From contig ML978124.1 in assembly GCA_010015805.1 (NCBI GenBank), positions 496,001 through 560,000 on the forward strand: DNA of 64,000 nucleotides. Reading direction: 5' to 3'. The first letter of the stretch is position 1; each line of letters starts with the position of its first letter. Both the position numbers and the translations under genes were made by a program. Below the pieces are notes generated by a model. The model was not told the DNA's origin. It did no database searches and saw only the letters and a list, made by a program, of their open reading frames with translations. The stretch is from Rhizodiscina lignyota. Taxonomy: Eukaryota. This document shows positions 42,079-63,138 of this stretch, one piece after another.

Positions 42079-43722
42079 ATGACCCTCGACAATGACACCC
42101 GCGGGTGGATTATGACCCTGGCTTCCGGGATTGGTATGTATCTCACGGTCTACGAATACTTACTTTACCTTTACAAGACTGACAGTCGGATAGCTTGCGT
42201 CCTTGGATCATCCATTATTTGCGTCGACGTATTCGTTCGCATGATTCCTGGGCAGAAGGACTTTAGGATTCAAGATAGTAACGGATTCCTATCGTCATCA
42301 CTAAGCCTTAGTTTCGGTGTCATGGTAAGACTTTGCAATTTGGAAGCAGATCGGTCGAGCTTACTTTATTTCTCAGTTGTTCTCGTCGCTTTACAGCATG
42401 CTGCCTTCAGCAAAACGGTCGCTCGAGAAAGGCGGATTTTCCTCTCAGGAAGCAGCATGGATTCTGATTCTATGTTTTATTGCTGGTGTGGTAGGCATTC
42501 AGATTATATCACGGGTTTTACACCATTACATGCCCTCTCATGTAGTTGACTGCGACCACACTCACCAAGGCGGCGAGGAACAATCTGGTGTACATTCTGG
42601 CCACGCAAGACCTCACCGTCATTCTCATGGGGAGCGAAGAGCATCCGACCTTTCCACACATACTGATCCCGAAATGGCGATGCGTGAATCTGCCGAATCA
42701 CTTCGGCAGAATGGAAGTTACAGTGGCACCGATGCTAACGGAGCTCTGGCACGAAGACCGTCCTTGCCTTACCAATTGACAAAGCAAGTATCGCAATTAA
42801 TGACAAGGACGAAGTCATCTTGCGACGTCGATGGCCAGTGTTATGGCTATTCTGAACCCTGTGGACTTGAATGTTTCAAGATCGTACAGTCTCGGGGAGG
42901 AACTCGTCTACCTTCCACTGGCGCTATTCGGCACCCGGGCCTGTCACGTAGCGCGACCACAAGTCGAGCGGTGGCTCGGACGGGTGAGCGCCAGCCGCTA
43001 CTCCAGGATATTGTCGAGGATCGCACCCTCTCACCGCCCAAGAATGGCTCTCCGATTCTGTCTGTCAATGGGTCGACCGGACCTAGTAATTACAGCTCTC
43101 TTCACCAGACAGACGCGCACTCTGAAGGCACAGCAGAAACAGAGTTCGACGAGGGAGACGATGACCTAGCCCATGATCATCACCATCACGTCCCAACAAA
43201 TGCGTTTCTTTCTATTGGCCTACAGACCTCCATCGCTATTGCTCTTCATAAGCTACCTGAAGGGTTCATCACCTACGCAACAAATCACGCCAATCCCCAA
43301 TTGGGTTTATCAGTCTTTATGGCCTTGTTTATCCATAATATCACTGAGGGATTCGCAATGGCTCTTCCACTATACTTGGCCATCAACAGTAGATGGAAGG
43401 CTATGTTTTGGAGCGCCTTACTTGGTGGAGCGAGCCAACCGCTGGGGGCAGGAGTTGCAGCTTTGTGGTTTCGGCTTGCTAGACGTGGAGATAGCGAGCC
43501 AGGCGAAGGAGTTTACGGTGGAATGTTTGCGGTTACTGGTATGCCAATCTCCCATAAATGAATTTTCGAAATGCTAACCTTGCTGCAGCTGGTATCATGG
43601 CGTCGGTTGCTTTGCAGCTTTTTTCCGAGAGCTTAGACTTGACACATAACCGTAATTTATGTATGGCGTTTGCCTTTGTTGGAATGGGTATTCTGGGTAT
43701 TAGCTCGGCGTTAACCGCGTAG
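42079..43722 (+). CDS. ZIP-family zinc transporter (Zrt3-like), 4 exons
   Basis: SLSLSFGVM, His-rich loop HDHHHH, IALHKLPEG and FIHNITEG ZIP signatures. Confidence 0.92.
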
Positions 43723-44179: not shown

Positions 44180-45601
44180 ATGAACTCAGAAGACGCCGGA
44201 GGCGGCGAAAAGCCCAGCAACGGAAAGTCCAGCAAGCCACGCGACAGCAAAGGCTGGGATGGCAAGCTTCGCGTTGAGAGGAGGCCTCTGATCGTGAACC
44301 CCGAAGCGTTGTCTGATCCTGACTACTCTGACGAAGATGCGCCCCCTCCGGAGCTGATCGAGGCGGATGAAGGTGCGTATCGCGGTTGGCACGCGAGCTT
44401 CCTTGGAAACTGACTCCGGACTCTTGGTAGATCTGTTAGATGGTGTTGAAGAAGACACCGAGGTTTGTTTCTCCGGACCCAGCTTTACTGACCACCTGCT
44501 AATGTTGGCGCGTCGTAGGAGGTCGACCTCGTACACTGCCGCATCACCTCAATCCCCGCCTTGCACCTCGAGCGCTTCCAGAAGGTTCAGGTTTGTGTTG
44601 GCAGATATGCTATGAGATCTTGGCCAAACCTGACCTGTTAACAGAGGCTTTGTCTGCGCCAGAACCAAATCACCATCGTCGAGCTCCCGCAGGAGTGGGC
44701 TTCTACTTCTACTCTACAGGATATTGACCTCTACGACAACCTGCTCAAGCATATCGAAGGTCTGGATAGCCTTCTCGAACTCATCAGCCTCGACCTGAGC
44801 TTCAACAAGATCAAGCACATCAAGAATGTCAACCACTTGACGAAGCTGAAGGATCTCTATTTCGTGCAGAACAAGATCCAGAACATCGAGGGCTTGGAGG
44901 GTCTGAGCAACCTCAGGAACCTGGAGTTGGCTGGAAACCGGTTGAGAGTAAGGCTGCAGTTTGTCAATTACGCGGCTATCCTTACTAACTCAGGCTACAG
45001 ACGATCGAGAATCTCGAGTCCCTCAAAGGCCTTGAGGAGTTGTGGCTAGGCAAAAACAAGATCACCGAGATCAAGGTTTGCGAACAGATGCACCTCATCC
45101 ACAGTTGGCTTGCTAAACCTCATCAAGAACATCGACAGCCTCTCCAACCTCCGTATCCTCTCCATCCAGTCGAACCGTCTTACGCAAATCTCCGGCCTGT
45201 CCTCCCTTACCTCTCTCGAAGAGCTCTACATCTCACACAACGCGCTGACTAACATCTCCGGCCTCGAGTCCAACACGTCCCTCCGCGTCCTCGACGTGTC
45301 CAACAACCCGATCGACCATTTCACCGGCCTGACAAACAACTCCAACCTCGAAGAAGTATGGGCGAGCAATTGCCTCTTTGGAGACTTTGCTGAAGTGGAG
45401 CGCGAGTTGAAGGACAAGGAAAAGCTGGACACCGTGTACTTTGAGGGAAATCCTCTGCAGAAGAACCAGCCGGTGCTGTATCGCAACAAGATTCGCTTGG
45501 CGTTGCCACAGGTCAAGCAGATCGATGCGAGTAAGTTGCCATTCTACCTCTGGATGAGTTGAACATGCTAACTGTGAGTAGCGTACGTGAAAGTGAGCTG
45601 A
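44180..45601 (+). CDS. SDS22: Protein phosphatase 1 regulatory subunit (LRR), multi-exon
   Basis: GWDGKLRV, NPEALSDPDYSDEDAPP, SDS22-type LRRs, TVYFEGNPLQ, YRNKIRLALPQVKQIDA. Confidence 0.93.
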
Positions 45602-46077: not shown

Positions 46078-48269
46078 CTACGACCTCATCTCCTCCAACT
46101 CCAACTCCAGCCTCCTTATCTTCTCATCCCTCTCATCCCTTCCCCCAGCACTTGCGCCACCACTGGCAACCTTGCTCTTCAGCATATCGACTTCCCCAGT
46201 GAGGTTCGTAATCTGCTCGCTCTGCGTGGCCATCATGCGGTTCTGCGCCTCAAGCATGGCCATCAACCTGGCCTGCGCATCCTTGATGTCCTGCAAATGC
46301 GCTTTGAGGCCCTCGGCTGCGCCGCTTGCTGTTGGGCCTGCTGCACTGGGTGGGGGTCCGCTCGACACTGGCGCAGGTGCTGGTGTAGGGGTGGATGTGG
46401 GCGGGTCCGCAACTGTGGGCACTGATCTCGCCCCAGACTTTGGCTCGGTTTTCTGCACGGGCTTTTCTGGTTCCTTCGCGATTGCGGGACCACGAGTCTT
46501 TTCCTCCATTCGAGCTACCGTCGCCGATGGCCGCTCGACGGGCTTGGGTATCTCCTCGAAGCTCGAATCATCGTCATCTTCTTCCTTCTCGTCTTCATCT
46601 TTATCCGCGAACTTGGATGCCATAGCCGACATGGAGGCCTTGTTGTCCTTCATGCTTGGCATGGTGTCTCTCTGCACTGGTGCAGGTTCCGCTTTCGGCT
46701 GAGCCTTTGGTGCTTCTGTCTTGGCTGGCGGTGGGCTCTGTAGGGGTGTCTGTGTGGCCGGCTTGTAATCCGCGGGGACTTCCTTCGGTGCTCCGCCTTC
46801 GTAGACGCTCTCGAGTGAAATCTTGGGAGGGAGACCGTCTTTTCCATCGAACCACTCGCCAGCCGACACGGCAGGTTTGATGCCGTTGGTAGGTGGGTAG
46901 ATGTCACCTTGGAAGACTTCAGCACGGCGGGGAACGATGAAAGAGATGGGCTCGACGTATGTATCAGCCACGGTCTTGTAAGCACGCATGACTTCATTGT
47001 CGTGGAGCTGGCAAAGATATTAGTATCTGGACTGTAATATGTATTTCATGAGAGGAGCATACATTGATCCCACGCTTTGGTAAGAAGGCAATGCCTCGCT
47101 GTGGATCAGGTGATTTGTACTCGGAGAGGTACTCAAATTTGTCGTTTTCATACTCGTAGTAGCGGATATTCCCGTCACTGAAACTGGTTAGCGATAGAAA
47201 GTACTCAATTCATGACAAAACTTACCCTTTGCCTGCAAGATAAAGGCATTTCGTTCCATCGTCCCAGAATGGCATACAGACCCCAGATATTTGGTCCAGA
47301 ATCATGAATCCACCAATAGGCTCCTTTGGTGCCCTCACATCCCATAGGCCCAACTGACGATCGCTCATGCGCGAGAAGCCTGTTGTTGCGATCCTGTCGT
47401 GCTCGCCCATCCACACAGCCCGGCTATTTTTCGCTCCTGAATGGCCTTGGTTTTCCTGTACTGGCTTCTCTTGCCTCACATCCCATAGGCGGAGCTTCTT
47501 GTCACGACTAGTTGTTACCAGAAGAGCACCATTCGCACTCCATGATAGCGATTGAACGACATCTCCATGCTTCAGCGTCAGCTTTGGTGCACCTGCTTCG
47601 ATATCCCATATCTTCACAGTATAGTCGCCGGACGAACTGGCAAGGACGTTGGCGGCGGAAGGATTGAACAGGACGTGGCCAACTTTTCTGGAATGTGCGG
47701 TGAATCTGCTGACCGGTCCGACGTCTTCTGGCTCTTCCGCGTCTGTGTACAGCGAAAAGTCCTCCGGGACCTTCCAGATGAAGACCTTGGCGTCGTCTGA
47801 GCCGGAGGCGATAAGCGAGTCGTTGAAAGGACTCCAGTCCGTATCCAATACAGCAGCAGTGTGTCCTCTAAATAACGGCATGCGCTCTGGGAGCTTCCCG
47901 CGCTCATTGGTAGGTATTACGGCGAACGCCCCACCGCCGCTCGCCTCCCAATTGACAGATATGTACTCCGGATTCGCCTAATATACATGTGAGTTTAGTC
48001 CAGCTCGTGTGGGGCCCGGCGGAGCTCACTTTGATAAGGTTGGTGTCCCAGGCATTCTTCGATATGCGGAGGTTATCATAGCATTGTTCCTTGTCGCCGT
48101 TAGTTTCAGAAGCTCAAGTTGTCTGAGAACGTTTCTATGCAGCTCACCTTTTTTGTAGACTGTCCAAAGACGTGACCTAGAAACTCTTCTTTAGCATAAT
48201 ACTCGGGTCCGGTGCAGAGCTGAGCGAATGCTTACGGTACTTCGAGGCTCTTACGAAGCGGCCAGCCAT
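46078..48269 (-). CDS. CRN1: Coronin (WD40 actin-binding protein), multi-exon
   Basis: MAGRFVRASKYRHVFG, NAWDTN, GHTAAVLDTDW, GFSRMSDRQ, LAGKGDGNIRYYE, PISFIVPRR and a C-terminal coiled coil. Confidence 0.96.
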
Positions 48270-48815: not shown

Positions 48816-50748
48816 ATGCTCCTGCGACGGCTCATCACCGCTCCTTGCGGCTCCTTCTTGAGGTCCAGCACAGGTTCTCTGCGACAGGCCAATAGGCATG
48901 GTTCCATTACTCATCTATCAATGAGAGTAGTACTAATAAGGAGATGAAGCAGGCTTTTATCAACCTCACTGCCTCGTAAAGCCTCGCCGACCGACGATTC
49001 GAAAGTTCTGAATAAAGTCAGTAGCCATGTCACACAACCAAAGGCTCAGGGGGCGTCGCAGGCTATGCTGTACGGCACTGGTCTCACAGAAGAGGACATG
49101 AATAAGGCTCAGGTTGGCATATCGTCCGTGTGGTTCTCTGGCAACCCATGCAATATGCACCTCCTCCAGCTCAATAACAAGGTGAAAGAGGGCGTGGAAA
49201 ATGCCGGTATGACAAATGGAAAAAAAGTTCAAGTGGAGCTAGAGATGCTAACACAGTTGGATAGGCATGGTTGGGATGCAATTTAACACCATCGGTGTTA
49301 GTGATGCCATTTCAATGGGAACGAAGGGCATGAGATACTCGTTGCAATCACGAGATCTTATTGCTGACTCCATTGAATCCGTCATGGGCGGCCAGTGGTA
49401 CGATGCCAACATCTCCATTCCTGGATGTGACAAGAATATGCCAGGAGTGGTGATGGCAATGGGACGTCTCAATAGGCCTTCGCTTATGGTGTACGGAGGC
49501 ACAATCCAACCTGGTTGTGCAAAGACACTGAACAACCAGGATATTGATATTGTGTCAGCGTTCCAATCATATGGCCAATTTATCTATGGGGATATTAACG
49601 AGGAGACGCGCTTCGACATCATTCGGCATGCCTGCCCTGGAAGCGGAGCATGTGGTGGAATGTACACCGCAAATACCATGGCCACCGCGATCGAGACGAT
49701 GGGTCTGACGCTTCCTGGATCATCCTCGAACCCAGCAGAGTCAAAAGCGAAGCAACTCGAGTGTCTTGCTGCGGGTGGTGCTATCAAAAACCTTCTCGCG
49801 GAGGACATTCGCCCAAGCGATATCATCACCCGTCAAGCTCTCGAGGATGCCATGACAATCACTATGATTCTTGGCGGTTCAACCAATGCTGTCCTTCATC
49901 TTATTGCAATCGCTCACTCTGTTGGTATCAAGCTCACCATCGACGACTTCCAGGCCGTGAGCGATCGCACACCTTTCCTGGCAGACTTGAAGCCATCTGG
50001 CAAATACGTCATGGCGGATCTTTATGCTATTGGCGGCACACCTTCCCTGCACAAGTTCCTTATTGGAGAAGGTGTCATCGATGGTAACCGACTGACCGTA
50101 ACTGGTAAGACGCTTAAGGAGAACATCGAAAGCGCGCCTGCGTTCCCAGAAGACCAACAAATTCTCAAGCCGTTCAGCAACCCTATCAAGCCGACGGGGC
50201 ATATTCAAATCCTCCGCGGTAACCTTGCCCCTGGTGGCAGTGTAGGCAAGATCACTGGCAAAGAGGGTCTCAAGTTCAAAGGCAAAGCTCGCGTCTATAA
50301 TGACGAAGATGACTTCATTACCGCTGTTGAAGCCGGACAGCTAAAGAAAGGCGAGAAGGTCGTCGTCGTCATCCGCTACGAAGGACCAAAAGGTGGACCT
50401 GGCATGCCGGAAATGCTGAAGCCCAGTTCAGTGATCATGGGCGCCGGACTAGGCCAGGACGTTGCTCTGATCACAGACGGCAGATTCAGTGGAGGGAGCC
50501 ATGGATTCTTGATCGGTCATATTGTTCCTGAAGCGCAGGAAGGTGGTCCTATTGCCTTGGTGCAAGATGGGGACGAGATCACCATTGACGCAGAGAGCAG
50601 GGAGCTGAATCTCCATGTCAGCGAACAAGAATTGGAGAATCGACGAAAGGACTGGAAGGCACCGCCGCTGAAGTATCAAAAAGGTACTCTATTCAAATAC
50701 GCGAAGAATGTGAAGGATGCTAGTCTCGGAGCCATCACGGATGGCTAG
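48816..50748 (+). CDS. ILV3: Dihydroxy-acid dehydratase, mitochondrial, 3 exons
   Basis: [53 protein letters not shown]; Arg-rich presequence. Confidence 0.97.
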
Positions 50749-51958: not shown

Positions 51959-54780
51959 ATGGCAGGCACCGAGAGTCGTCAAACGACAGCTTTAGTAATT
52001 GCTGCCGTATTTCTTGCTTGCTCTACGGTCTTTGTGACTCTTCGGCTTATTTCACGAACGTTGGTTGTCAGGAAATTGCAGCCTGACGATTGGTTTATCA
52101 TTGCAGCTTGGGTATGTCTTAGTTCCACTGAAACAGATTTTAGCTTATTATGTGAAGGTGGTGAGCTTCGGGCTATCATTTTCGATTTGCTATGGAGCAT
52201 CTGTTGGCCTGGGGAGGCATGAGATCGATGTTCCAGCGGATTGGGAAGCTCCACTGAAGAAGTCGGAATATGCTTTCTCGGTGCTCTATGTAAGGAGTTC
52301 GAACGATCTCCCGACTTCTGCTAATTGATACAGAACCCCGCGCTCATGCTCACAAAAACCTCGATATTGGTGTTCTACCTCAGGCTATCAACAACCGAGA
52401 AAATTTTCAAGTGGGCATGCTATGCTACTTTGGTTGTTGTTAATGTTGGTGGTCTTGCTCTTTCAATACTAAATATCGCCCAATGCAGACCATTGGTATG
52501 AGATATGGCTGTGAATATTGCAACTGTATGTGCTAATGCAGTACAGAGTTCGGCTTTCGAGACTCCAATTCCCAATGGAGCGAAATGTACAGACATCGTC
52601 ACGCTGTACCTGAGCTCCGCTCCTCTAAACATTATCACCGACCTTGCAATCCTCTTCCTCCCGTTCCCTGTCCTTACGTCCATCAAGCTACCGCGGAAGC
52701 AGAAGATCATCCTACTGGTTACCTTTGGATTTGGCGTATTCATTGCAGTAGTCGATGTGGTCCGAATTGCGTATTTGCAACAAGCTTTCATGACCCGAAT
52801 CGAGAGTGTGCAGACCAATTCCCACAGCGAGGGGCCAGACGCGAGAAATAGCAGCGATTTCTCTTGGTACGGTGCAATTTCGTACACTTGGTCCGCGATA
52901 GAAGTCCACGTTGGGATTATGGTTGCTTGTGTGCCTGGTCTGAAGCCGCTGGTATCAAGGTTCCTGCCCAAGATGCTCCGAGATTCGGATAAGGAAGATT
53001 TCACGATAAGGTCGAGCGACGCGTCAAGGAGTATGTCTGAGATGCAAACGGCACAACGAATACCATCTGCTACCAAATCACCCGTACGAGACCGAGGCGA
53101 ATCAGTGGCCCCGGATGAAGGACCAATTGGCATGATGGATTTCTTGACTACTCCGGATATGACCGAACTTCCTCAGATCCAGCGCACAGATACAACAATG
53201 ACCCCAACGACCCCCAACTTTTTTGACTTTGTGAATATCCAAGGCAAAAAGTCCATGGTGCATATGACGACAGAAGAGTCCCTTTTCCCTGTGGCGATGG
53301 TCACAGTTCTTTTCTTCATCTGGGTAGGTTGCCGTGTGGTGCAATAGCGATTGTGCTAATTACTGATTGCTTTTAGGGGTTTGCCTACGGCCTCCTGGAC
53401 AGCTTGAATGCACAATTTCAAAACGTTGCACACATGTCCATTGGTCAAACCATTGGGATTCATTCGGCGTACTTCGCCGGGTACTTTGTAGCTTCCGCAT
53501 CATTCGGTCACCTCGTACTGAGGTTCTGGGGATTCAAGGCATGCTACATTGTTGGCCTCGCTATCTATGCGTGTGGGACCTTGGTCTTCTGGCCTGCGGC
53601 AGTGTTGACGTCCTTTCCGGCCTTCCTTGTGTCCAACTTCATCGTTGGCATGGGCCTGTCCACCTTGGAAGTCAGTGCAAATCTGTTTATTAGCCTTTGC
53701 GGTCCGCAGGAGTACATGGAGATTCGCCTCAATTTATCTCAGGCTGTGCAGGCCATTGGAAGCGTTGTGGCACCACTGCTAGCAACTAAGGTCCTTTTCA
53801 AAAGCGCGACACATGCATCCGCTCTGACGGACGTCCAATGGACCTACCTTGGCATATCACTCTTCACCATCCTGCTAGCCGTGGGTTATTACTACGTTCC
53901 CTTGCCCGAGGCAACAGATAGGGACCTTATAGAGATTGGGGAAAGGGCAGATGGCGCTAACGATGCTGAATTGCATATCCCTTTCTTCTCCGGACCCAAC
54001 TCGTACATCAAAGTCGTACTCATAACCCTGGTCATCGGCATCTTCAGCGAATTCTGCTACGTTGGCGGTCAGGAAGCCATCTCTACATCGTTTTCCTCAT
54101 ACCTCGCTGAAGTAAACCCGTCGCTCGATCCAGTCAACTTTCAGGCTGTAGGCCACTCCGCCTTCGCGGTCAGCCGTTTCATAGCGGCCGGACTGAACCT
54201 TTGGATCAAGCCACGGTACTTATTAGCATTTTATTACGGGGGAGCCGTTGTCTTTTCCGCACTGTGTATGGGAACATTCAGCGCCAAGACCAGTAGTGGG
54301 CTACTCATTATGGTGTACTTTTTCGAGGGCCCGATATTCTCTTTGGTCTTCGCGATGATTCTACGAGGGCTAGGAAGACACACGAAACTCGCAAGCGCAA
54401 TGATCGTTGCTGGCTTTGGGGCAGGTGGCGCGACAATACCACCGATCATGCATGCTGTGGCGACTGGAAGAGATGAGCGATATGGGTGGTCTGTAATTGT
54501 GGCGATATTCGGTGGTGGTTGTATTTTAGTGATTTGGGCGAATGCGTTGCCGAGTGTGAGGAAGGTTCTCGATCCAGTGAAGACCGCTTCATCACCCTCG
54601 TTCGAAGGCGGTGCGGATACTCCCGATGAAGACCAACCAACAATTGCGAGTTCGGGAAGCAGAGCGAGCAGAATATGGGGGAACCTCAAGAAAAGTCGGA
54701 GAAGGAAAAGCGATGAAAAGAGAAGCAGTGATGACGAAGGCCCTTCGAGCCCTTCGACCGAGCATCGAGAGAAGCTGTAA
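51959..54780 (+). CDS. Fusion protein: Pth11-like 7TM (fungal rhodopsin-type) domain + FucP/GluP-like MFS transporter; 5 exons, 875 aa
   Basis: Introns 52112-52157, 52290-52333, 52496-52546 and 53324-53376 all preserve the frame. 7TM motifs LRLISR, DDWFI, GLGRH, QCRP, NIITDLAILFLP, EVHVGIMVAC; MFS motifs FFIW|GFAYGL, IHSAYFAGY, LEVSAN, RLNLSQAVQAIG. Confidence 0.88.
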
Positions 54781-57142
54781 TGGAATCGGTGCATCATTGA
54801 CGCGACATGACGAACTTCTTTTTCTGTACATATGTTATAGATACCCCTGTGAATTAAACACATGCGCCTACGTATGCGCTTCTTCCGCTGCCAAGAAGCC
54901 TTGGCTTGTTCGTTGGTGGTTTGTTTTGCGACAGGAATTGTGTGAGATTTCGGTCTTCCGTTCATGCCTTAGTGTCTCTCTTCTATGACGGGAGACCTGC
55001 ATACATGGCCCACGTATGTGTGTTTTCGAATTTCATGACAAGGTACGACTCTGTATTACCCACTGGAAAGCCGGAATGTTTGGATTAACAAGACTGTCTC
55101 GGCAGAAAAGCTTGCCGGTGCTTGATGGAAATTTGTATATATGCATAGCTGCCAAGAATTGATCTGCTCTCGAGGGCAGACAGCGTCAAAGAGCTCCCAT
55201 CACCATCTACGTACAATGATGAGCTAATTGAAGTGCGAATCCAGCTATCCTGCTCGGCCAGTTCGAAGCTGCTCAACCGCAGCGCCACTCGGATGAAGTT
55301 AACTTTAGACTGAGTATTGTTAAACCAGTCAGTGCTTCCGCCATCGTCGCAGTTCTTCCAAGACGGTTGCTCACAAACTGCGGAGGAGCGCAAGGACAAA
55401 AACCTACGACGGAGCGGAAACTGCCAAGGCGGCTTTAGTGTGAACCGATATATGGAAGATGGTGGAGAGGAGGCTGTGCAAAGAACTTGATACACTGTCG
55501 ATGCGGGTGTGTGATTAAGGATATAATACAGGTCCGATTTGCAAAAGTTTCGAGCCTGGGTGTTGAACGATGATCTCCGACTTTGCATGTTTGACAGTGT
55601 CAAGAATTCGGAGAAAGGAAAAGATCAGTTCGCGCCTCCTATTGGTTCAATGCTCCACGTGGATTTGAGTTTAGAGCTTTGAAATCTCATAAGAGGAAGT
55701 CTGAGAGACGAGAGGGTGGAGTTTTAGGCGCGTTTGACAACCATCATGAAGACCAGGCTTCCCTGAGCAGATCGTACAACGAAGCAGTACGGCCTTGAGG
55801 ACGCGCGGAGTTCCAAATACTTCCATTTGATATGTCGCTTTGACGAGAATCGGAACTGCTCAATCTTATGAGGAAACAATTCTTTCTTGGCTTCCGTCTT
55901 TTTGGTCATTCAACAAGTTTGTGGTACTCGTGATGGCCTGGAGTTGGTGCTCAAGGTCCCAAAGTGCAATCCGGTACTGATCTAGTACTATCTGATGATC
56001 TGCAGCCACCCGCAGAGGGTCTCGTAGGCAAAATAGATGAAAGACCGACTCGGAGAGGGTGCCGATATTGTGAAGAAGATTGCTGCATGGTGTAGGTTGG
56101 TAGATTTCGCGGGAGCCGCCCTTGGGTGCCCTAATTTGCAAGGGACTTGGTGATGCACGTGGCTGAAACGCTATCCTAAACAACGTCCTTAGTATCCTTC
56201 GTACCAACTCAACACAACCTACCCTCTTCGATGCTTGATCACGACAAGCTGTGTTTCTCTCGAGAAACATCGGCTCCCAAGAGCTCTTGTTTTCGCGAGA
56301 TGGTCTTAATGAAGGAGCTTCATGCCATCCCGCACTCTTACCTCGCGGCGGGTCTGTGCAATAATCGTTTCTACCACGAATGCTTGGTAGTCGATGAATG
56401 ACGACTGAACCATCAGCAGCAACAAATAGGCAGTTCTGGAGACAATGACAGAGTCTTAGATCAAGTTCTATCAAAAGCTGCTATCGGAAGCAGGAGATGG
56501 GCGTAGCCTGGGATAGAAAGGTTTCTAATTGAGTTGACATCTTGTGTCTGGCGTCGAAAGGAAGCTCATACAGGTCTCAGAGTGCGTAATAGCACGTTAA
56601 AAAACTATACAATAGTATAGAGGTAATATGATCGACGTACACGCGCTACGTATCATCGGAGCAGGAGCACAGCCAGTAATTGATGATGTTTCGATCTGGT
56701 TATCCAAGGATGCTCAATCGTCCTCTGTAAGAAGATGCATCACCAGCAGGGGTATGATGCCAGCCTTACGACCTCAAAACGCTTGTTTAACTGTCCGTGA
56801 TAAATTGCAGGTGCCTTTTTTTGCCAAGATCCCCAAGGGTGAGCTCCATCACATCCAGGCCATACCCCTAGTCGATCGAGGCTGTGCTTGACGCATTCAT
56901 TCATTACTTCTTTTCTCCATAATCGCAATTTGCTGTCTCTACATTATCCCTCCTCGCGTCGTTGTTTGCCTTTGAGGGTTTGCGGGAGTGATCTTTTTCT
57001 TCGTCTTCTATAAACATTTCTTTCCATTCGTTAGGAAACGTTAAGGCGGGCCTGTTCATTCCTTTGTCACTCATTACTTGGGCTTCTGCTTTCAATCTTT
57101 AGACTCATCGGCCGGACCTTCCATTCCTTTCAACAGTTCATC

Positions 57143-59120
57143 ATGCATATCTTCGGCTCGCTGTCTCTATTGTTGCTGGCAACTTCGACAACAGCCTCTC
57201 CTTCACGACGTTACTATCGTTTCTCTCAAGATCAACAGCGCAAGGCAGAAGAGATAAACCGGCGCCAGCTTAATAACAACATAACAAGCGCTGTTGATCC
57301 AGCCTCAATTACAACTGCGACAATTTTCAGCACTTCGACCCACACGGTTACATCATGTCCCCCAACAGTTACCAATTGCCCGGCGGAGGCTGCGCTTACC
57401 ACTACCACAACCCACGTAATTGCGGTATCGACGACAGTTTGCCCGGTGAGCGAACTCTCGTCGATATTTTCTTCTATATCTAAGGCAGCGGCGTCCCGCG
57501 AGTCGGAGAAGTCGAAGGAATCAAAGAAGGAATCAAAAAACAAGAAAACGACAACACCTGCTTCCACATCGGCAACGATGACCGGTACCGCCCCAATGTC
57601 ATCGTCCCTAGGAACAGGATTTGCTTCAGGATCAGTGTCTATTCAGTCAGCCAATAATACGAGCACGAGCAGCTCCAGCATTATCTTAAGCACCGGATTG
57701 TCTTCGGGTTCGGGATCCGTAGCCGCTCAATCAGCTAACAGGACGACTTCGACTTCGACTAAGCAAACGACTTCCACCAAGACATTCACGAGCACGTCTA
57801 CCGTCCTCAGTCAAGTCACATCAACTGTTACATCTCAAGTAACTATGACTCTGTCTTCGAATGGAACCACGACGACGTCGATCAAAACCACAACGCTTGT
57901 GAACACGAAAACGGCAACTTCGACCAGCGTAAGTCTTCTCCCCCCTCGTATTATTGAACTCGCACTAATCAATCGCGGTAGACCGTATTCGTCACCGCCA
58001 CGATGATGAATAATTCAACAATATCAGCCGCGACCGCAACGACAACGACAACCTCGACTCCGACCTCGACGACTTCTTCTTCCTCTAGCCTCAGCTCATC
58101 TAATTCAACGCTAGTATCTGCCGCAGCAGCTACTACCTCGTCCACAACTCTTTCGAGCACGACGACCACCACGTCTCTCAGAACGGTCACCTCTACGGTC
58201 CTGACCTCTGCTCCTGTTACGTCCTTTGTCAACACGTCCATGAGTCTCATGACCTTCACTAATTCTGCCGGGTCTGCTACGACGTTGACATCGACAGTTC
58301 TCAGCACATCTACGAGCTTCAGCACCGTCACTATTCTGCAGACGCAAACTCTATCGGCGACTTCATTCGCCACCTCATTTGCAACTACATCCGCCACATC
58401 GGTATCCGCTGCAGCGTTCACGTCAACCACCAGCACTACATCGTTGGCAAATACGACGTCGTTCTCTACCGCGACCTCTGCTGTATTTACCAGCGCAACT
58501 ACCTCCACTGCGACATTTTCAACCCCATCGTTTTCCACCGCGAGCACTGCGGCCTTTACGAGTGCGACTACGGCGACGACTGCATTCACGAGTGCGTTTA
58601 CCTCGGCGTTCACGAGCACAACGAGCTTTCAAACTTTCTCCGCTGCCTCTGCGCAGAGCTCGACCTGTACTCCTTCCACAGTAACAGTTACAGTTACAGC
58701 GTGTGCCTCGACTTGCAATACCCCGGTTACCGTCACAGTGGTGAGTTCAAAACTTCTCCGTTTCAGGTGGTTTCGGGAAATACTAATAACAACCGTTAGA
58801 CTGCGGCAGCATCGACCGCGACCGCACTTGTCGTCCAGACCGTCAGTGCTGCAGGTTTCAATACTACAACGAGCGCTACGTTCAATTCCGCAATGGTATC
58901 AGCAATGGCAACGGCTCTGAGCTTCGGGACAGGAACTGCGGGAACCGCGGGCACCGCGGGCACACTCTCTGGCGGTGCATTTGCAACAGGCAACAACGGC
59001 ACGTTCACGAAGAAGACGTCTGCTCATGGCCACAAGTTTACCAAGACACCGTCTGCTTTTGACACTTCTACCAAGAAGCCATCTACTACAGAGGTCCCTG
59101 CATTGTCGTATCTGTTCTAG
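57143..59120 (+). CDS. Secreted Ser/Thr-rich mucin-like/cell-wall protein, 3 exons
   Basis: Signal peptide, RR processing site, THTVTSCPPTVTNCP...VSTTVCP motif and long S/T tracts; introns near 57929-57980 and 58741-58799. Confidence 0.8.
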
Positions 59121-59961: not shown

Positions 59962-61693
59962 ATGGCTTCTGAGGATCTATCTTCTAAGCATTCACTTGCG
60001 TACACATACGACATCCAAGACTTCCGAGTCGGTAATGTGGAAGATGAGAGACGTCTTCGAGCTCTTGTTGGAGTCCGAATTGGCACCGATACCGATGCTG
60101 GAAGGTACGTCTGAGAGTCTGAGAGATTCGATCTTGGGTTGGCAAGCTGGACTTAACATTAACGGATTTTAGTGAAACCCCCAAGTCGAATAATGGCCGC
60201 GTCAGTGGCCTCGCTCAACAACTTGCCTCCTTGTCTGTCTCTTCTCCAACCGAAGAAGCCTTGAATGAAAAGATCAATCGGAACCTCGAACAAGTTAGTG
60301 GCGCTGGTGTCACTAGGCGCGATCGGATCGCTATCGACGATGCGTCCAATTTCCAAAGACCATTCATAGCCTTCTTCAATGTGACGCGGAGATTTGAGAA
60401 GACTTGGGCTGCTGTCGGGGTTGCTGTTCGAATGGCGGCCAAGGAGGTCGCTGCCGCCAAACAGGTTCAATCTCGTAGACCGAAGTGCGTTGTGCTTGTC
60501 TCGACGCGCATGGAAGCTGCTGTCCTCTTCTATCAGGCCCTGAACCTTTGCTTCGGTACAGGAATCCGTCCGCGAGCTCTATATGGCACGCAGTCCGAAG
60601 ACATCGATTGTCCAAGCTACGACAAGCAGCGCAAGCTCCTACTCAATGGCAGCTGCGACCTTCTGATCGTAACCCCTGGACGATTTTTCCAGATGCGTCA
60701 GGATGCAAAGTGTAAAGCGGCTCTGGGTGACATTCGATTCGTCTGTCTTGAGGAGGCACAACTCTTTATCTCGGGAATGTGGAACCAGGATAAGAAACCT
60801 ATTTACGAGCAGGTGCACGAGGGAAAGCTGATACAAGAAACAACATCGATCTTAGCGATCGGATCGGGCCTAATCCACATAGTAAGGAAGGCACTTCGAG
60901 ATTCTCTGAAGATTGAGAAACGGGGATGGATATCCCGAATCCTTGCTCCAAGTGCGGGTGTACATGCGGCCCAACATGTTCAGCAACACTTCACGAGGAT
61001 TCAAGATGGCCCCACTCTCTTGAGGCACGCCGTGTCGCTGATCCGCGTAATACTTCTTGGAAGAATGAAGACCATGGTATTCCTGAATTCTTTGGAGACG
61101 GCGGACGAGTTCCATCGCGATGTCATCCGCGAATTGGAAGAGGCCGGGGTCAGGGAACCGGGTAGACAAGTTGGCCTGTTGACTCGAACAATGGGTTTAC
61201 AGCACAACGAGTCGGCCTTCGCAAAATTTTCCCTAGGCTCGGAAATGACCGTTCTTATCGGGACCCACGGCCTCGCAATTTCTCCGTACATCTCGAACGT
61301 TACCACTGTCATCCACATAGCCTTACCTTTCTCCTTGGAAGACCATAATATCCGATTGGGCTATGTTTCAGCGGCAACCAAAGAGGCAGCAGGAACATCG
61401 CTTGCACTTGTTCAGGAGAAAGACCAGCCGGTATTTAAGAAGATAGCGGAAGATGTTGCTGCTGCTGGGACTGGCTCAAAGGAGGTCATCTTGCGAGCCC
61501 TCCGAACTCCCTCTGCATTCGAACCTGTCCCTCAGAAACCTCATCGAGCCAAGAGATATAATCCGAAATCCGATAAGAAGTGCTACGAGTGTGGCAGTTG
61601 TAAGTCCCCAGAATAGAGGATGAAGCCAATTCGTCATACAGAAGCTAATATGAGGCAGACGGGCACTTCCGGGTGAATTGTCCGTTGTATTAG
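59962..61693 (+). CDS. Divergent DEAD-box helicase-like protein with degenerate motifs and a C-terminal CCHC zinc knuckle, 3 exons
   Basis: STRMEA, TPGR, LEEAQ, KTMVFLNS and VLIGT occur in DEAD-box order. Spliced end CYECGSYGHFRVNC; introns 60105-60172 and about 61600-61658. Confidence 0.75.
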
Positions 61694-62009: not shown

Positions 62010-62505
62010 AGGATAGTCACACAAACTAGCACTAAGGTTGTACCAGAGCCGCAAGATATCGAACTAATGGTTCTTGACATTGTGCACTTCGTATATTCAG
62101 ATATGGCCTCGCTCGTCCGAACCTCAACGTTGGAATGGGTGGAGTTCAGATATTCATCACGTGAAAGCCAAGACTCGTCACTCGGTAGGTACCGGGGAAT
62201 GACAGTCCGGGCCCGAGCTTTCGCCTCCCATTTTGAAAGCCTAGCAAAATTCTAGAAGTGCCAAAGCGCCTTTCTCCGTCGATTGGCCGAGCTTCAAAAG
62301 AATTTCAGTTCTCCCTTTTAACCGCACATCCCCCTCATCCATCAACCGTCAGATACCCGTAGACTCGTACGCGCTGTTTCGACCTCGAATTTCAATAGAC
62401 CATATTTCGTATACCCTTATAGATTCTCGTAGCGCAGGACAACGCGCCTCCTTTCCATTTTGCACTCAACCCGCGACTCCGGCCGCCATTGGCTCCTAGA
62501 AAGAG

Positions 62506-63138
62506 ATGAAAGTTTTTTCGGCTTCAGATGAGTTCGACTACTCGTGGGAAGAAGTTTCCACAGCAAACTGGCGGAAGTACTGCCCTTGGAACGAGAAGAC
62601 GCCACATGTACTTGCGGTCGACACGCTATCCAGAAATATAGACCCAGAGACTGGAATTGTAAGTTATCACTTGCCCATCGCGCAAGGTGGACAGTTTCTG
62701 ACCATATCACCTCTACAGCTTCGGACTGAGCGACTGATTACATGTCAACAAACCGCACCCAAATGGCTTGCTCCCTTCGTTGGCGACGGCAGCTCTCATG
62801 TCTATGAGGTGTCTTACTGCGATCCAAAGTCGAAGAAAGTCACTATGTGCTCGCAGAACATGACATGGTCTGATCTGATCAGCGTACAAGAAACTGTCGT
62901 ATACAAACCCTTGGCAGCATCTCCAAACGGAAAGACCCAATTCCACCAGACAGCCAGAATTACAGCTCTATGTGGCGGATGGGATAGAATTAAAGCCAAG
63001 GTCGAACAAGCCACCGTCGATAGATTCGCACAAAATGCAGCGAGAGGAAAGGAGGGCTTCGAGATGGTTCTCGAAATGAGCAGGAGAGCGTTCGCCCAGG
63101 AGAGAGAAGAACAGGCCATGCAGAAGGCAAGGCTGTGA
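62506..63138 (+). CDS. UPS2: PRELI/MSF1 mitochondrial lipid-transfer protein, 1 intron
   Basis: MKVF...WEEVSTANWRKYCPWN, HVLAVDTL, LRTERLITC, RFAQNAARGKEGFEMVL. In-frame intron GTAAGT at about 62659 to about 62718. Confidence 0.9.
   Translation: MKVFSASDEFDYSWEEVSTANWRKYCPWNEKTPHVLAVDTLSRNIDPETGIVSYHLPIAQGGQFLTISPLQLRTERLITCQQTAPKWLAPFVGDGSSHVYEVSYCDPKSKKVTMCSQNMTWSDLISVQETVVYKPLAASPNGKTQFHQTARITALCGGWDRIKAKVEQATVDRFAQNAARGKEGFEMVLEMSRRAFAQEREEQAMQKARL

Follow-up and report, generated by a model that had tools for sequence, protein, structure and literature searches.

A gene of the fungus Rhizodiscina lignyota was found to join, in one reading frame, a receptor-like module of seven transmembrane helices (7TM) of the Pth11 type and a sugar transporter-like module of the major facilitator superfamily (MFS) whose closest solved relative is E. 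coli FucP. The gene lies at positions 51959-54780 of a stretch of 64,000 nucleotides (NCBI GenBank assembly GCA_010015805.1, contig ML978124.1, positions 496,001 to 560,000 of the forward strand), which is called the window below and from whose first letter positions are counted. R. lignyota is a Dothideomycete of the order Aulographales (lineage looked up). The fusion is real, ancient and widespread, with hundreds of fungi sharing it, and it appears to be unstudied; its members are filed under plain permease names. The function put forward for it here is a proposal.

One gene encodes both modules

The spliced coding sequence comprises 2628 nucleotides (nt) in five exons on the + strand and specifies 875 amino acids (aa) with one terminal stop. 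Its product is identical letter for letter to the database protein P0001, named "MFS general substrate transporter [Rhizodiscina lignyota]". Two large open frames are present on the + strand (52502-53347 and 53377-54780), and the exons and introns are arranged as follows (TM, transmembrane helix).

51959-52111, +: exon 1 (aa 1-51), with the start codon, TM1 and the beginning of TM2 of the 7TM module
52112-52157, +: intron 1, 46 nt, GTATGT...AAG, phase 0
52158-52289, +: exon 2 (aa 52-95)
52290-52333, +: intron 2, 44 nt, GTAAGG...GCTAAT...CAG, phase 0
52334-52495, +: exon 3 (aa 96-149), matching Fung_rhodopsin profile positions 69-119 (E 2.8e-13)
52496-52546, +: intron 3, 51 nt, GTATGA...GCTAAT...CAG, phase 0
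52547-53323, +: exon 4 (aa 150-408), holding TM5-TM7 of the 7TM module, the entire linker and the first half of MFS helix 1 in a single open frame; Fung_rhodopsin match E 3.3e-26 (Pfam, exon alone)
53324-53376, +: intron 4, 53 nt, TGG|GTAGGT...TGCTAAT...TTTAG|GGG, phase 0, inside MFS helix 1 (W408|G409)
53377-54780, +: exon 5 (aa 409-875 and stop), holding the remainder of the FucP-like MFS module of 12 TM and a disordered C-terminal tail; MFS_1 match E 7.2e-16

Intron 4 is in phase 0 because exon 4 measures 777 nt, that is 259 codons, and leaving it unspliced leads into a stop (…FFIWVGCRVVQ*). In a Pfam search with the whole chain, Fung_rhodopsin (PF20684) matched residues 28-287 with E 2.9e-59, covering the complete domain (profile 1-237 of 237; 200.9 bits against a gathering cut-off of 27), and MFS_1 matched residues 404-737 with E 3e-13. 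One gene encodes a single membrane protein with a predicted 19 helices (7 + 12). One 69.6-kb contig from a DNA-like sequencing run, perhaps the source of the window, was colinear with the stretch and without joints.

A reading of this stretch made from its letters alone (the sequence-only reading) had proposed this fusion, and its gene model held up in the main. The 53-nt phase-0 intron at 53324-53376 is exactly as claimed and the frame arithmetic agrees; as had been stated, it falls within the first MFS helix, since the modelled helix 391-425 spans the junction 408|409. The single 875-aa product was borne out by the spliced sequence, which is identical to P0001, and so was its composition: the 7TM module is of the Pth11 type, the linker is predicted to be cytoplasmic, and the MFS module of 12 TM belongs to the FucP/FHS type, with both Pfam domains on one chain. 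About 19 helices had been expected, and the AlphaFold model contains 7 + 12. Two strings quoted from the linker were located at 53132-53158 (PIGMMDFLTTPD) and 53219-53233 (NFFDFVN). Missing from the earlier list were the three upstream phase-0 introns at 52112-52157, 52290-52333 and 52496-52546.

Distribution of the fusion among fungi

Related loci (80 in all) were taken from metagenome contigs. A single stop-free open reading frame (ORF) carried both modules in 73 of them, 20 of these 73 being whole-length, and the remaining seven were on contigs too short to reach the other module. On long genomic contigs, ORF calls pass through the intron 4 site without a single inserted residue, and intron-less examples include P0296 (807 aa, 155-kb contig) and P0015 (951 aa, full length, 30.6-kb contig); intron 4 is absent in many relatives. 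Since one ORF spans both modules in these loci and in the long-contig calls, the fusion is independent of splice prediction. Orthologues always encoded as two separate genes would have spoken against the sequence-only reading, and this is not what the 73 loci show. Stop-free ORFs of many relatives start just after the site of intron 2, and three fragments (P0416, P0417 and P0422) end or diverge right after FF(I/L)WG, which suggests that these relatives carry an intron at or within one codon of the intron 4 site.

With the MFS exon as query, 557 matches were obtained among proteins of 819-2335 aa, and the best 120 of these all carry PF20684 and PF07690. Among proteins of 256-818 aa, both domains were present in 101 of the 120 matches listed (hand count); the other 19, which appear as "MFS-only", are ORF fragments, 14 with at least one linker motif and four beginning inside MFS helix 1. 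A HMMER scan of 1.84 billion representatives, clustered at 50% identity, returned 2395 matches, and the 7TM module, scored by a hidden Markov model built from the family, was detected in 73 of the best 150. When short proteins were searched with the 7TM half, only fragments of fused genes came up, which have linker motifs or run into MFS helix 1.

Many fused members among the best 120 long matches are Dothideomycetes. Fused members also occur in the Eurotiomycetes Microsporum canis (named "L-fucose permease") and Penicillium canescens, in the Leotiomycete Tricladium varicosporioides, and in the Sordariomycetes Niveomyces, Chaetomium, Berkeleyomyces and Cladobotryum. Tremellomycetes (Basidiomycota) contribute Kwoniella, Cryptococcus depauperatus, a Tremellales species and Cryptotrichosporon. 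The lineages of four named members were looked up. PF20684 was confirmed by Pfam in 12 of 12 distant fused members, and the Tremellomycete proteins P0156, P0163, P0178, P0187 and P0188 contain it completely (E 1e-49 to 1e-56). For C. depauperatus, the fused gene is combined with a "histone acetyltransferase" in one annotated model (P0407, 1464 aa); the sister models of this species have 914-938 aa, and P0407 is probably a merged gene model.

In an unrooted FastTree tree of the MFS domain with 94 rows, the Tremellomycete members formed one clade (support 99). Unfused fungal FucP-like proteins (14 rows, from Mycena, Blakeslea and unnamed relatives) formed a separate clade (support 100), and "solo" rows scattered in the fused part of the tree are mostly truncated ORF calls. 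Because the short matches are fragments of fused genes and the unfused FucP-like proteins form a clade of their own, no close stand-alone version of either half was found in these searches.

All counts out of 147 given below come from a family alignment (A1) of 147 sequences with P0001 as reference. The 7TM module has a mean pairwise identity of 0.62 and the MFS module one of 0.575, against 0.40 in the linker and 0.39 in the C-terminal tail, and the identities of the two modules correlate with r = 0.94 over 10,731 pairs; therefore, the halves have travelled together and are both under purifying selection, with equal constraint on each. Comparison of these sequences showed the fusion to be an old orthologous family across Ascomycota and Tremellomycetes. 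The modules have been conserved together since before the split of Ascomycota and Basidiomycota, or since an ancient transfer between the two. The sequence-only reading had expected the fusion in other ascomycetes under plain permease annotations. The names did turn out this way ("MFS monosaccharide transporter-like protein", "fucose permease", also "Rhodopsin domain-containing protein"), and the best 120 of the long matches bear out the occurrence elsewhere; the confinement to Pezizomycotina was too narrow, since the fused family extends to Tremellomycetes.

A Pth11-like module precedes a FucP-like transporter module

The two modules, the linker between them and two codons of interest are located as follows (pLDDT, predicted local distance difference test).

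51980-52969, +: 7TM Pth11-like module (aa 8-290, span includes introns), PF20684, seven helices
52970-53269, +: linker (aa 291-390), mostly with pLDDT <50
53132-53158, +: linker motif 1, MMDFLTTPD (aa 345-353), with F348, L349 and P352 conserved in at least 90% of the 147 sequences
53219-53233, +: linker motif 2, FFDFV (aa 374-378), present in 133-145 of 147
53270-54552, +: MFS module (aa 391-800, span includes intron 4), 12 helices (391-798)
53398-53400, +: codon of D416, aligned with FucP Asp46 (proton coupling)
53668-53670, +: codon of E506, aligned with FucP Glu135 (substrate recognition)

The helices of the 7TM module span residues 8-37, 42-66, 78-113, 118-143, 166-194, 199-239 and 254-277 in the AlphaFold model. 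For the fold search, the model of P0413 was used, a 7TM-only fragment with 61% identity (pLDDT 88). Its best match in the wide VIA-align search was the fungal pheromone receptor Ste2, one of the G protein-coupled receptors (GPCRs), with Z 16.8 and a root-mean-square deviation of 3.8 Å over 234 residues, exceeding the next row by 2.3 Z; TAS2R14, designed GPCR-like folds, an adiponectin receptor and class A GPCRs followed at Z 12-14.5. Foldseek with the 7TM model against the PDB gave no match at E <= 0.001, and no solved structure of the PF20684 family turned up in the structure searches. An ESM Atlas model of residues 1-300 of P0001 aligns with a CFEM + Fung_rhodopsin cluster (TM 0.86 over 270 residues). 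In the Pfam search with the whole protein no CFEM domain (PF05730) was matched; helix 1 begins at residue 8. Helix 7 (aa 254-277, FSWYGAISYTWSAIEVHVGIMVAC) contains no lysine, so that the Schiff-base lysine is absent and the module is not a retinal rhodopsin. Charged and polar residues within the helices (K103, N132, N177, D181, D219, R222, Q227 and E268) are nearly invariant, as is a pair of cysteines, C146 and C163, in the loop between helices 4 and 5 (147-row alignment). We infer a topology with the N-terminus outside and the C-terminus inside, with the Cys146/Cys163 pair in an outer loop. On the AlphaFold helix boundaries, lysines and arginines are nearly even, 7 outside versus 8 inside, and so favour neither orientation.

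A second fusion of the Pth11 type was seen in the ESM Atlas, where 52 proteins of about 1015 aa combine CFEM and Fung_rhodopsin with the N and C domains of a GMC oxidoreductase. It is another case of a 7TM fold welded to a carbohydrate- or alcohol-oxidising partner.

For the MFS module, E. coli FucP was the best solved relative both by sequence (3o7q, E 1.5e-26, 25% identity) and by fold (3o7p and 3o7q at ranks 1-2, TMt 0.78-0.79), and the best NCBIfam match was fucP (E 5.7e-36). Foldseek with the whole-chain model returned MFS transporters only. In FucP, Asp46 is essential for proton-dependent transport and Glu135 is involved in substrate recognition, according to the sections of the review at hand (PMC3824880). 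The Asp46 equivalent is aspartate in 119 of 147 relatives and the Glu135 equivalent is glutamate in 144 of 147. FucP N162 aligns with Q533 and Y365 with F729, and the MFS half contains a conserved FFEGPxF motif with an extra glutamate (E725). Since both cavity acids and the fold are kept, the MFS half is likely to be active as a sugar:H+ symporter, with a hexose or deoxyhexose as its substrate.

Linker, tail and whole-chain model

The linker varies from 51 to 228 aa among the 147 relatives. Within it, FFDFV is recognisable even in Tremellomycetes and keeps a fixed spacing of 34 residues to W408 in 140 of 147. Because the 7TM module would have its N-terminus outside and its cysteine pair in an outer loop, and because MFS N-termini are cytoplasmic, the linker is placed in the cytoplasm; its motifs are likely to take part in coupling or adaptor binding. 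Residues 303-370 and 825-875 are disordered in the model. The variable disordered tail ends in a conserved P..EHRE(R/K) motif (STEHREKL, window 54742-54777, aa 864-875), which may be a sorting or phosphorylation signal.

The whole chain was modelled in one AlphaFold run with the 147-sequence family alignment and without predicted aligned error (PAE). Mean pLDDT was 85.4, the predicted template modelling score (pTM) was 0.84, and about 170 residues were disordered. By the pTM formula, a value of 0.84 needs the 290- and 410-residue bundles to be confidently placed relative to each other, and we infer from the model that the 7TM and MFS bundles pack side by side in the membrane and would work as one unit.

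Proposed function and rival explanations

As the probable explanation we regard a receptor-like 7TM module hard-wired to a FucP-like sugar:H+ symporter on one chain. Sugar binding and cycling in the MFS module would be passed on to the 7TM module by way of helix packing and the linker motifs, and the cytoplasmic face of the 7TM module would then signal, making the protein a "transceptor" built from two folds. In the reverse version, the 7TM module would sense an outside cue and gate or sort the transporter; the two directions of flow are inseparable on present data. Flow from transporter to receptor is somewhat likelier than receptor-gated uptake, because substrate binding looks more conserved than proton coupling. 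The transceptor mechanism is therefore the version we favour, as a hypothesis that takes somewhat under half of the probability within this explanation. The coupling of sensing and transport put forward in the sequence-only reading likewise stays a hypothesis.

Several points weigh against the hard-wired symporter. The Asp46 equivalent is replaced in 28 of 147 relatives (by N, G, S, A or others), so that proton symport is not family-wide. These 28 include nearly all non-Dothideomycete members, among them all 12 named ones listed, and Asp is kept in the Dothideomycete clade; in the named Tremellomycete, Sordariomycete, Eurotiomycete and Leotiomycete members the replacements are N, G, S, T, L and F, and the Glu135 equivalent stays. 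Loss of the Asp46 equivalent with the Glu135 equivalent kept may reflect a change of role, with facilitation or sensing in place of symport. Where FucP has Tyr365 the protein has Phe, and the fucP equivalog model (TIGR00885) scored 124.6 bits against a cut-off of 280.4; because of this low score, the entries "L-fucose permease" and "fucose permease" in the databases are unjustified as a substrate call. The packing of the bundles depends on a single AlphaFold run without PAE. An MFS-only product is conceivable, given the methionines at the MMDFL motif and the ORF calls starting at it. No conserved gene neighbourhood that points to a substrate was present in the 80 related loci, and no transcript, protein, transport or signalling data were found for the gene or its orthologues. 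Pth11-like proteins are "non-classical" receptors, and to our knowledge G-protein coupling is documented for Pth11 itself only.

The 7TM bundle might instead be an accessory subunit, a structural partner for folding, exit from the endoplasmic reticulum, membrane-domain targeting or endocytic turnover that neither senses nor signals, with the linker motifs as sorting or adaptor signals. These motifs are indeed acidic-aromatic, short and located in a disordered segment, as sorting and adaptor motifs often are, and in the search among short proteins the 7TM module was never found alone in this subfamily. A 2026 GPCR review, in the sections at hand, also describes the ligand or G-protein partner as unknown for nearly all Pth11-like proteins (PMC13308352). 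However, the nearly invariant polar and charged residues within the helices and the outer-loop cysteine pair exceed what a passive scaffold usually needs, and conservation is slightly higher in the 7TM module than in the transporter (0.62 versus 0.575). We judge this explanation unlikely, with some weight left to it.

An internal promoter with a start at M345/M346 or near M386/M389 could yield a stand-alone MFS protein besides or instead of the fusion, an arrangement that does not exclude the other readings. The sequence-only reading had denied the MFS half an independent start; this stands for the region downstream of intron 4, where none is present, and not for the linker upstream, which has in-frame ATG codons at M345, M346, M386 and M389. 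Of the 147 relatives, 128 have one or more methionines at reference positions 343-347, and the start of 11 of the 19 "MFS-only" ORF calls falls at or inside the MMDFL motif. Yet the other rows have I, L, V or F at the methionine positions, as expected for a hydrophobic helix face and not for a start codon. Intron-blind callers, moreover, take the first ATG after an upstream stop or contig edge (one locus, L064, begins 3 nt before that ATG), and in 73 of the 80 loci the upstream linker stays in frame without a stop, although its length ranges from 51 to 228 aa. Two products are thus quite improbable in our estimate.

It is also doubtful, to much the same degree or slightly more, that the MFS half binds sugar and does not transport it, as in Snf3/Rgt2, which would make the protein purely a receptor of two folds. 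The loss of the Asp46 equivalent in 28 of 147 relatives, the Glu135 equivalent being kept in 144 of 147, and the Tyr365 to Phe exchange in the family speak for such a sensor. Both acids are nevertheless retained in the R. lignyota protein and 119 of the 147 relatives, and the well-conserved MFS core is modelled as a transporter with all 12 helices; the closest solved FucP was deposited outward-open.

We give practically no credence to an artefact in which two neighbouring genes were wrongly joined by a chance GT..AG intron, since TM5-7, the linker and half of MFS helix 1 already lie in one frame within exon 4, an uninterrupted ORF is present in 73 of 80 independent loci, and the architecture occurs in five fungal classes. 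An annotation or assembly artefact was rejected on the long-contig ORFs and the 73 loci, as far as sequence can refute it.

Turning from these rivals back to the proposed receptor-transporter unit, a wider version of it is that the family consists of Dikarya-wide "receptor-transporter bigrams", in which a Pth11-class bundle is allosterically coupled to a sugar transporter, so that the receptor fold reads transporter occupancy or the receptor gates uptake. We hold this only tentatively, as a possible and not a likely generalisation. Loss of the Asp46 equivalent in many non-Dothideomycete lineages with the Glu135 equivalent kept, together with the second Pth11 fusion to a GMC oxidoreductase, would suggest a drift from a transporter towards a pure sensor and a habit of Pth11 modules of taking carbohydrate-handling partners.

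Gene neighbourhood

The genes around the fusion were assigned with Pfam as follows.

42329-43558, +: ZIP zinc transporter
45050-45559, +: leucine-rich repeat (LRR) protein
46081-47977, -: coronin-like WD40 protein (DUF1899 + WD40 + WD40_4)
49252-50745, +: upstream neighbour of the dihydroxy-acid / 6-phosphogluconate dehydratase family (ILVD_EDD_N E 6e-111, ILV_EDD_C E 5e-75)
60123-61613, +: DEAD-box helicase
62500-63135, +: PRELI-domain protein

The ZIP, LRR, coronin-like, DEAD-box and PRELI genes have no evident link to the fusion. Downstream of it, the long frames within 55085-58920 (55088-55624 and 55869-56480 on the - strand, 57035-58003 and 57982-58917 on the + strand) gave no Pfam match at E <= 0.001. 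A tblastn comparison of six window neighbours with the 80 related loci yielded no matches, and the adjacency of the dehydratase is probably incidental because this gene does not stand beside the fusion in any of these loci.

When 131 ORFs flanking the fusion in 32 loci were scanned with Pfam, no universal neighbour emerged. In six of the 32 loci an aldo/keto reductase (PF00248) is located 0.5-1.7 kb downstream on the same strand, at these locus positions.

L002, 5859-6506
L005, 8169-8819
L010, 7452-8309
L012, 7579-8445
L025, 7134-8463
L080, 7133-8462

L025 and L080, and L002 and L005, may be near-duplicates. The reductase is not present downstream of the fusion in the window, and it is possibly a sugar-reductase partner in one sub-clade.

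Relation to known systems and significance

The 7TM module resembles the Pth11-like receptors (fungal GPCR class XIV) in its full-length PF20684 match, its seven helices and its GPCR-like fold. In contrast to Pth11 proper, the R. lignyota protein has no CFEM domain and only seven residues before helix 1, and unlike in Pth11-like receptors its C-terminal tail runs on into a transporter of 12 TM. A census preprint states, in the sections at hand, that Pth11-related GPCRs are found only in Pezizomycotina (10.1101/2024.11.25.625238), whereas the fused PF20684 subfamily occurs in Tremellomycetes as well.

With the FucP/FHS family (TC 2.A.1.7) the MFS module shares the 12 helices, its closest solved relative and the Asp46 and Glu135 equivalents; it differs from FucP by an N-terminal extension of 390 residues that contains a second membrane domain and by the exchanges of N162 to Gln and Y365 to Phe. 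The only characterised fungal FHS member found was RhtA of Aspergillus niger, described as an L-rhamnose transporter in the portion of the paper available (PMC5161314).

The idea of a transporter fold as a nutrient reporter is shared with the yeast transceptors and sensors Gap1, Pho84, Mep2 and Snf3/Rgt2, as they are presented in the sections available (PMC3824880). Those are single transporter folds, with additional tails in Snf3/Rgt2; here a separate receptor-type 7TM module is on the same chain. A 7TM receptor domain at the N-terminus covalently joined to a C-terminal partner is also the plan of the GPCR-bigrams of oomycetes and Dictyostelium (GPCR-PIPK, -AC, -PDE, -TKL and -INPP), which the accessible text describes as lineage-conserved and of largely unknown function (PMC6033456). 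Their partners are soluble catalytic domains, whereas the partner here is a 12-helix membrane transporter and the 7TM module is fungal and of the Pth11 type; transporter partners are not mentioned in that text.

The sequence-only reading knew of no functional characterisation, and in this it agrees with our full-text literature search, which found no paper describing or testing a Pth11/Fung_rhodopsin-MFS fusion; supplements of the census papers, including the tables of PMC12842992, were outside the scope of that search and may list architectures. In the available text of the GPCR census preprint MFS appears only as a co-expanding gene family, that of the 2026 review does not mention MFS, "fused" or "permease", and the available text of preprints on modular fungal rhodopsins contains no mention of MFS. 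The architecture has already been catalogued automatically in the ESM Atlas as a cluster of 60 members, [quoted passage not shown].

Current names such as "MFS general substrate transporter" and "L-fucose permease" hide half of the protein, and they imply a substrate for which the scores give no support. PF20684 domains also occur outside Pezizomycotina, and the carriers of the fusion include many plant-associated Dothideomycetes, dermatophytes and Tremellomycete yeasts. Among the fungal "7TM receptors", no class is larger or less understood than the Pth11-like proteins, nearly all of which are orphans. The fusion is a "Rosetta stone" that ties the Pth11-type 7TM fold to sugar handling, and it is tractable for an uptake or signalling assay. 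If the bigram reading is true, it would provide the first ligand class for an orphan Pth11 subfamily and a form of nutrient sensing distinct from classical GPCRs and from single-fold transceptors.

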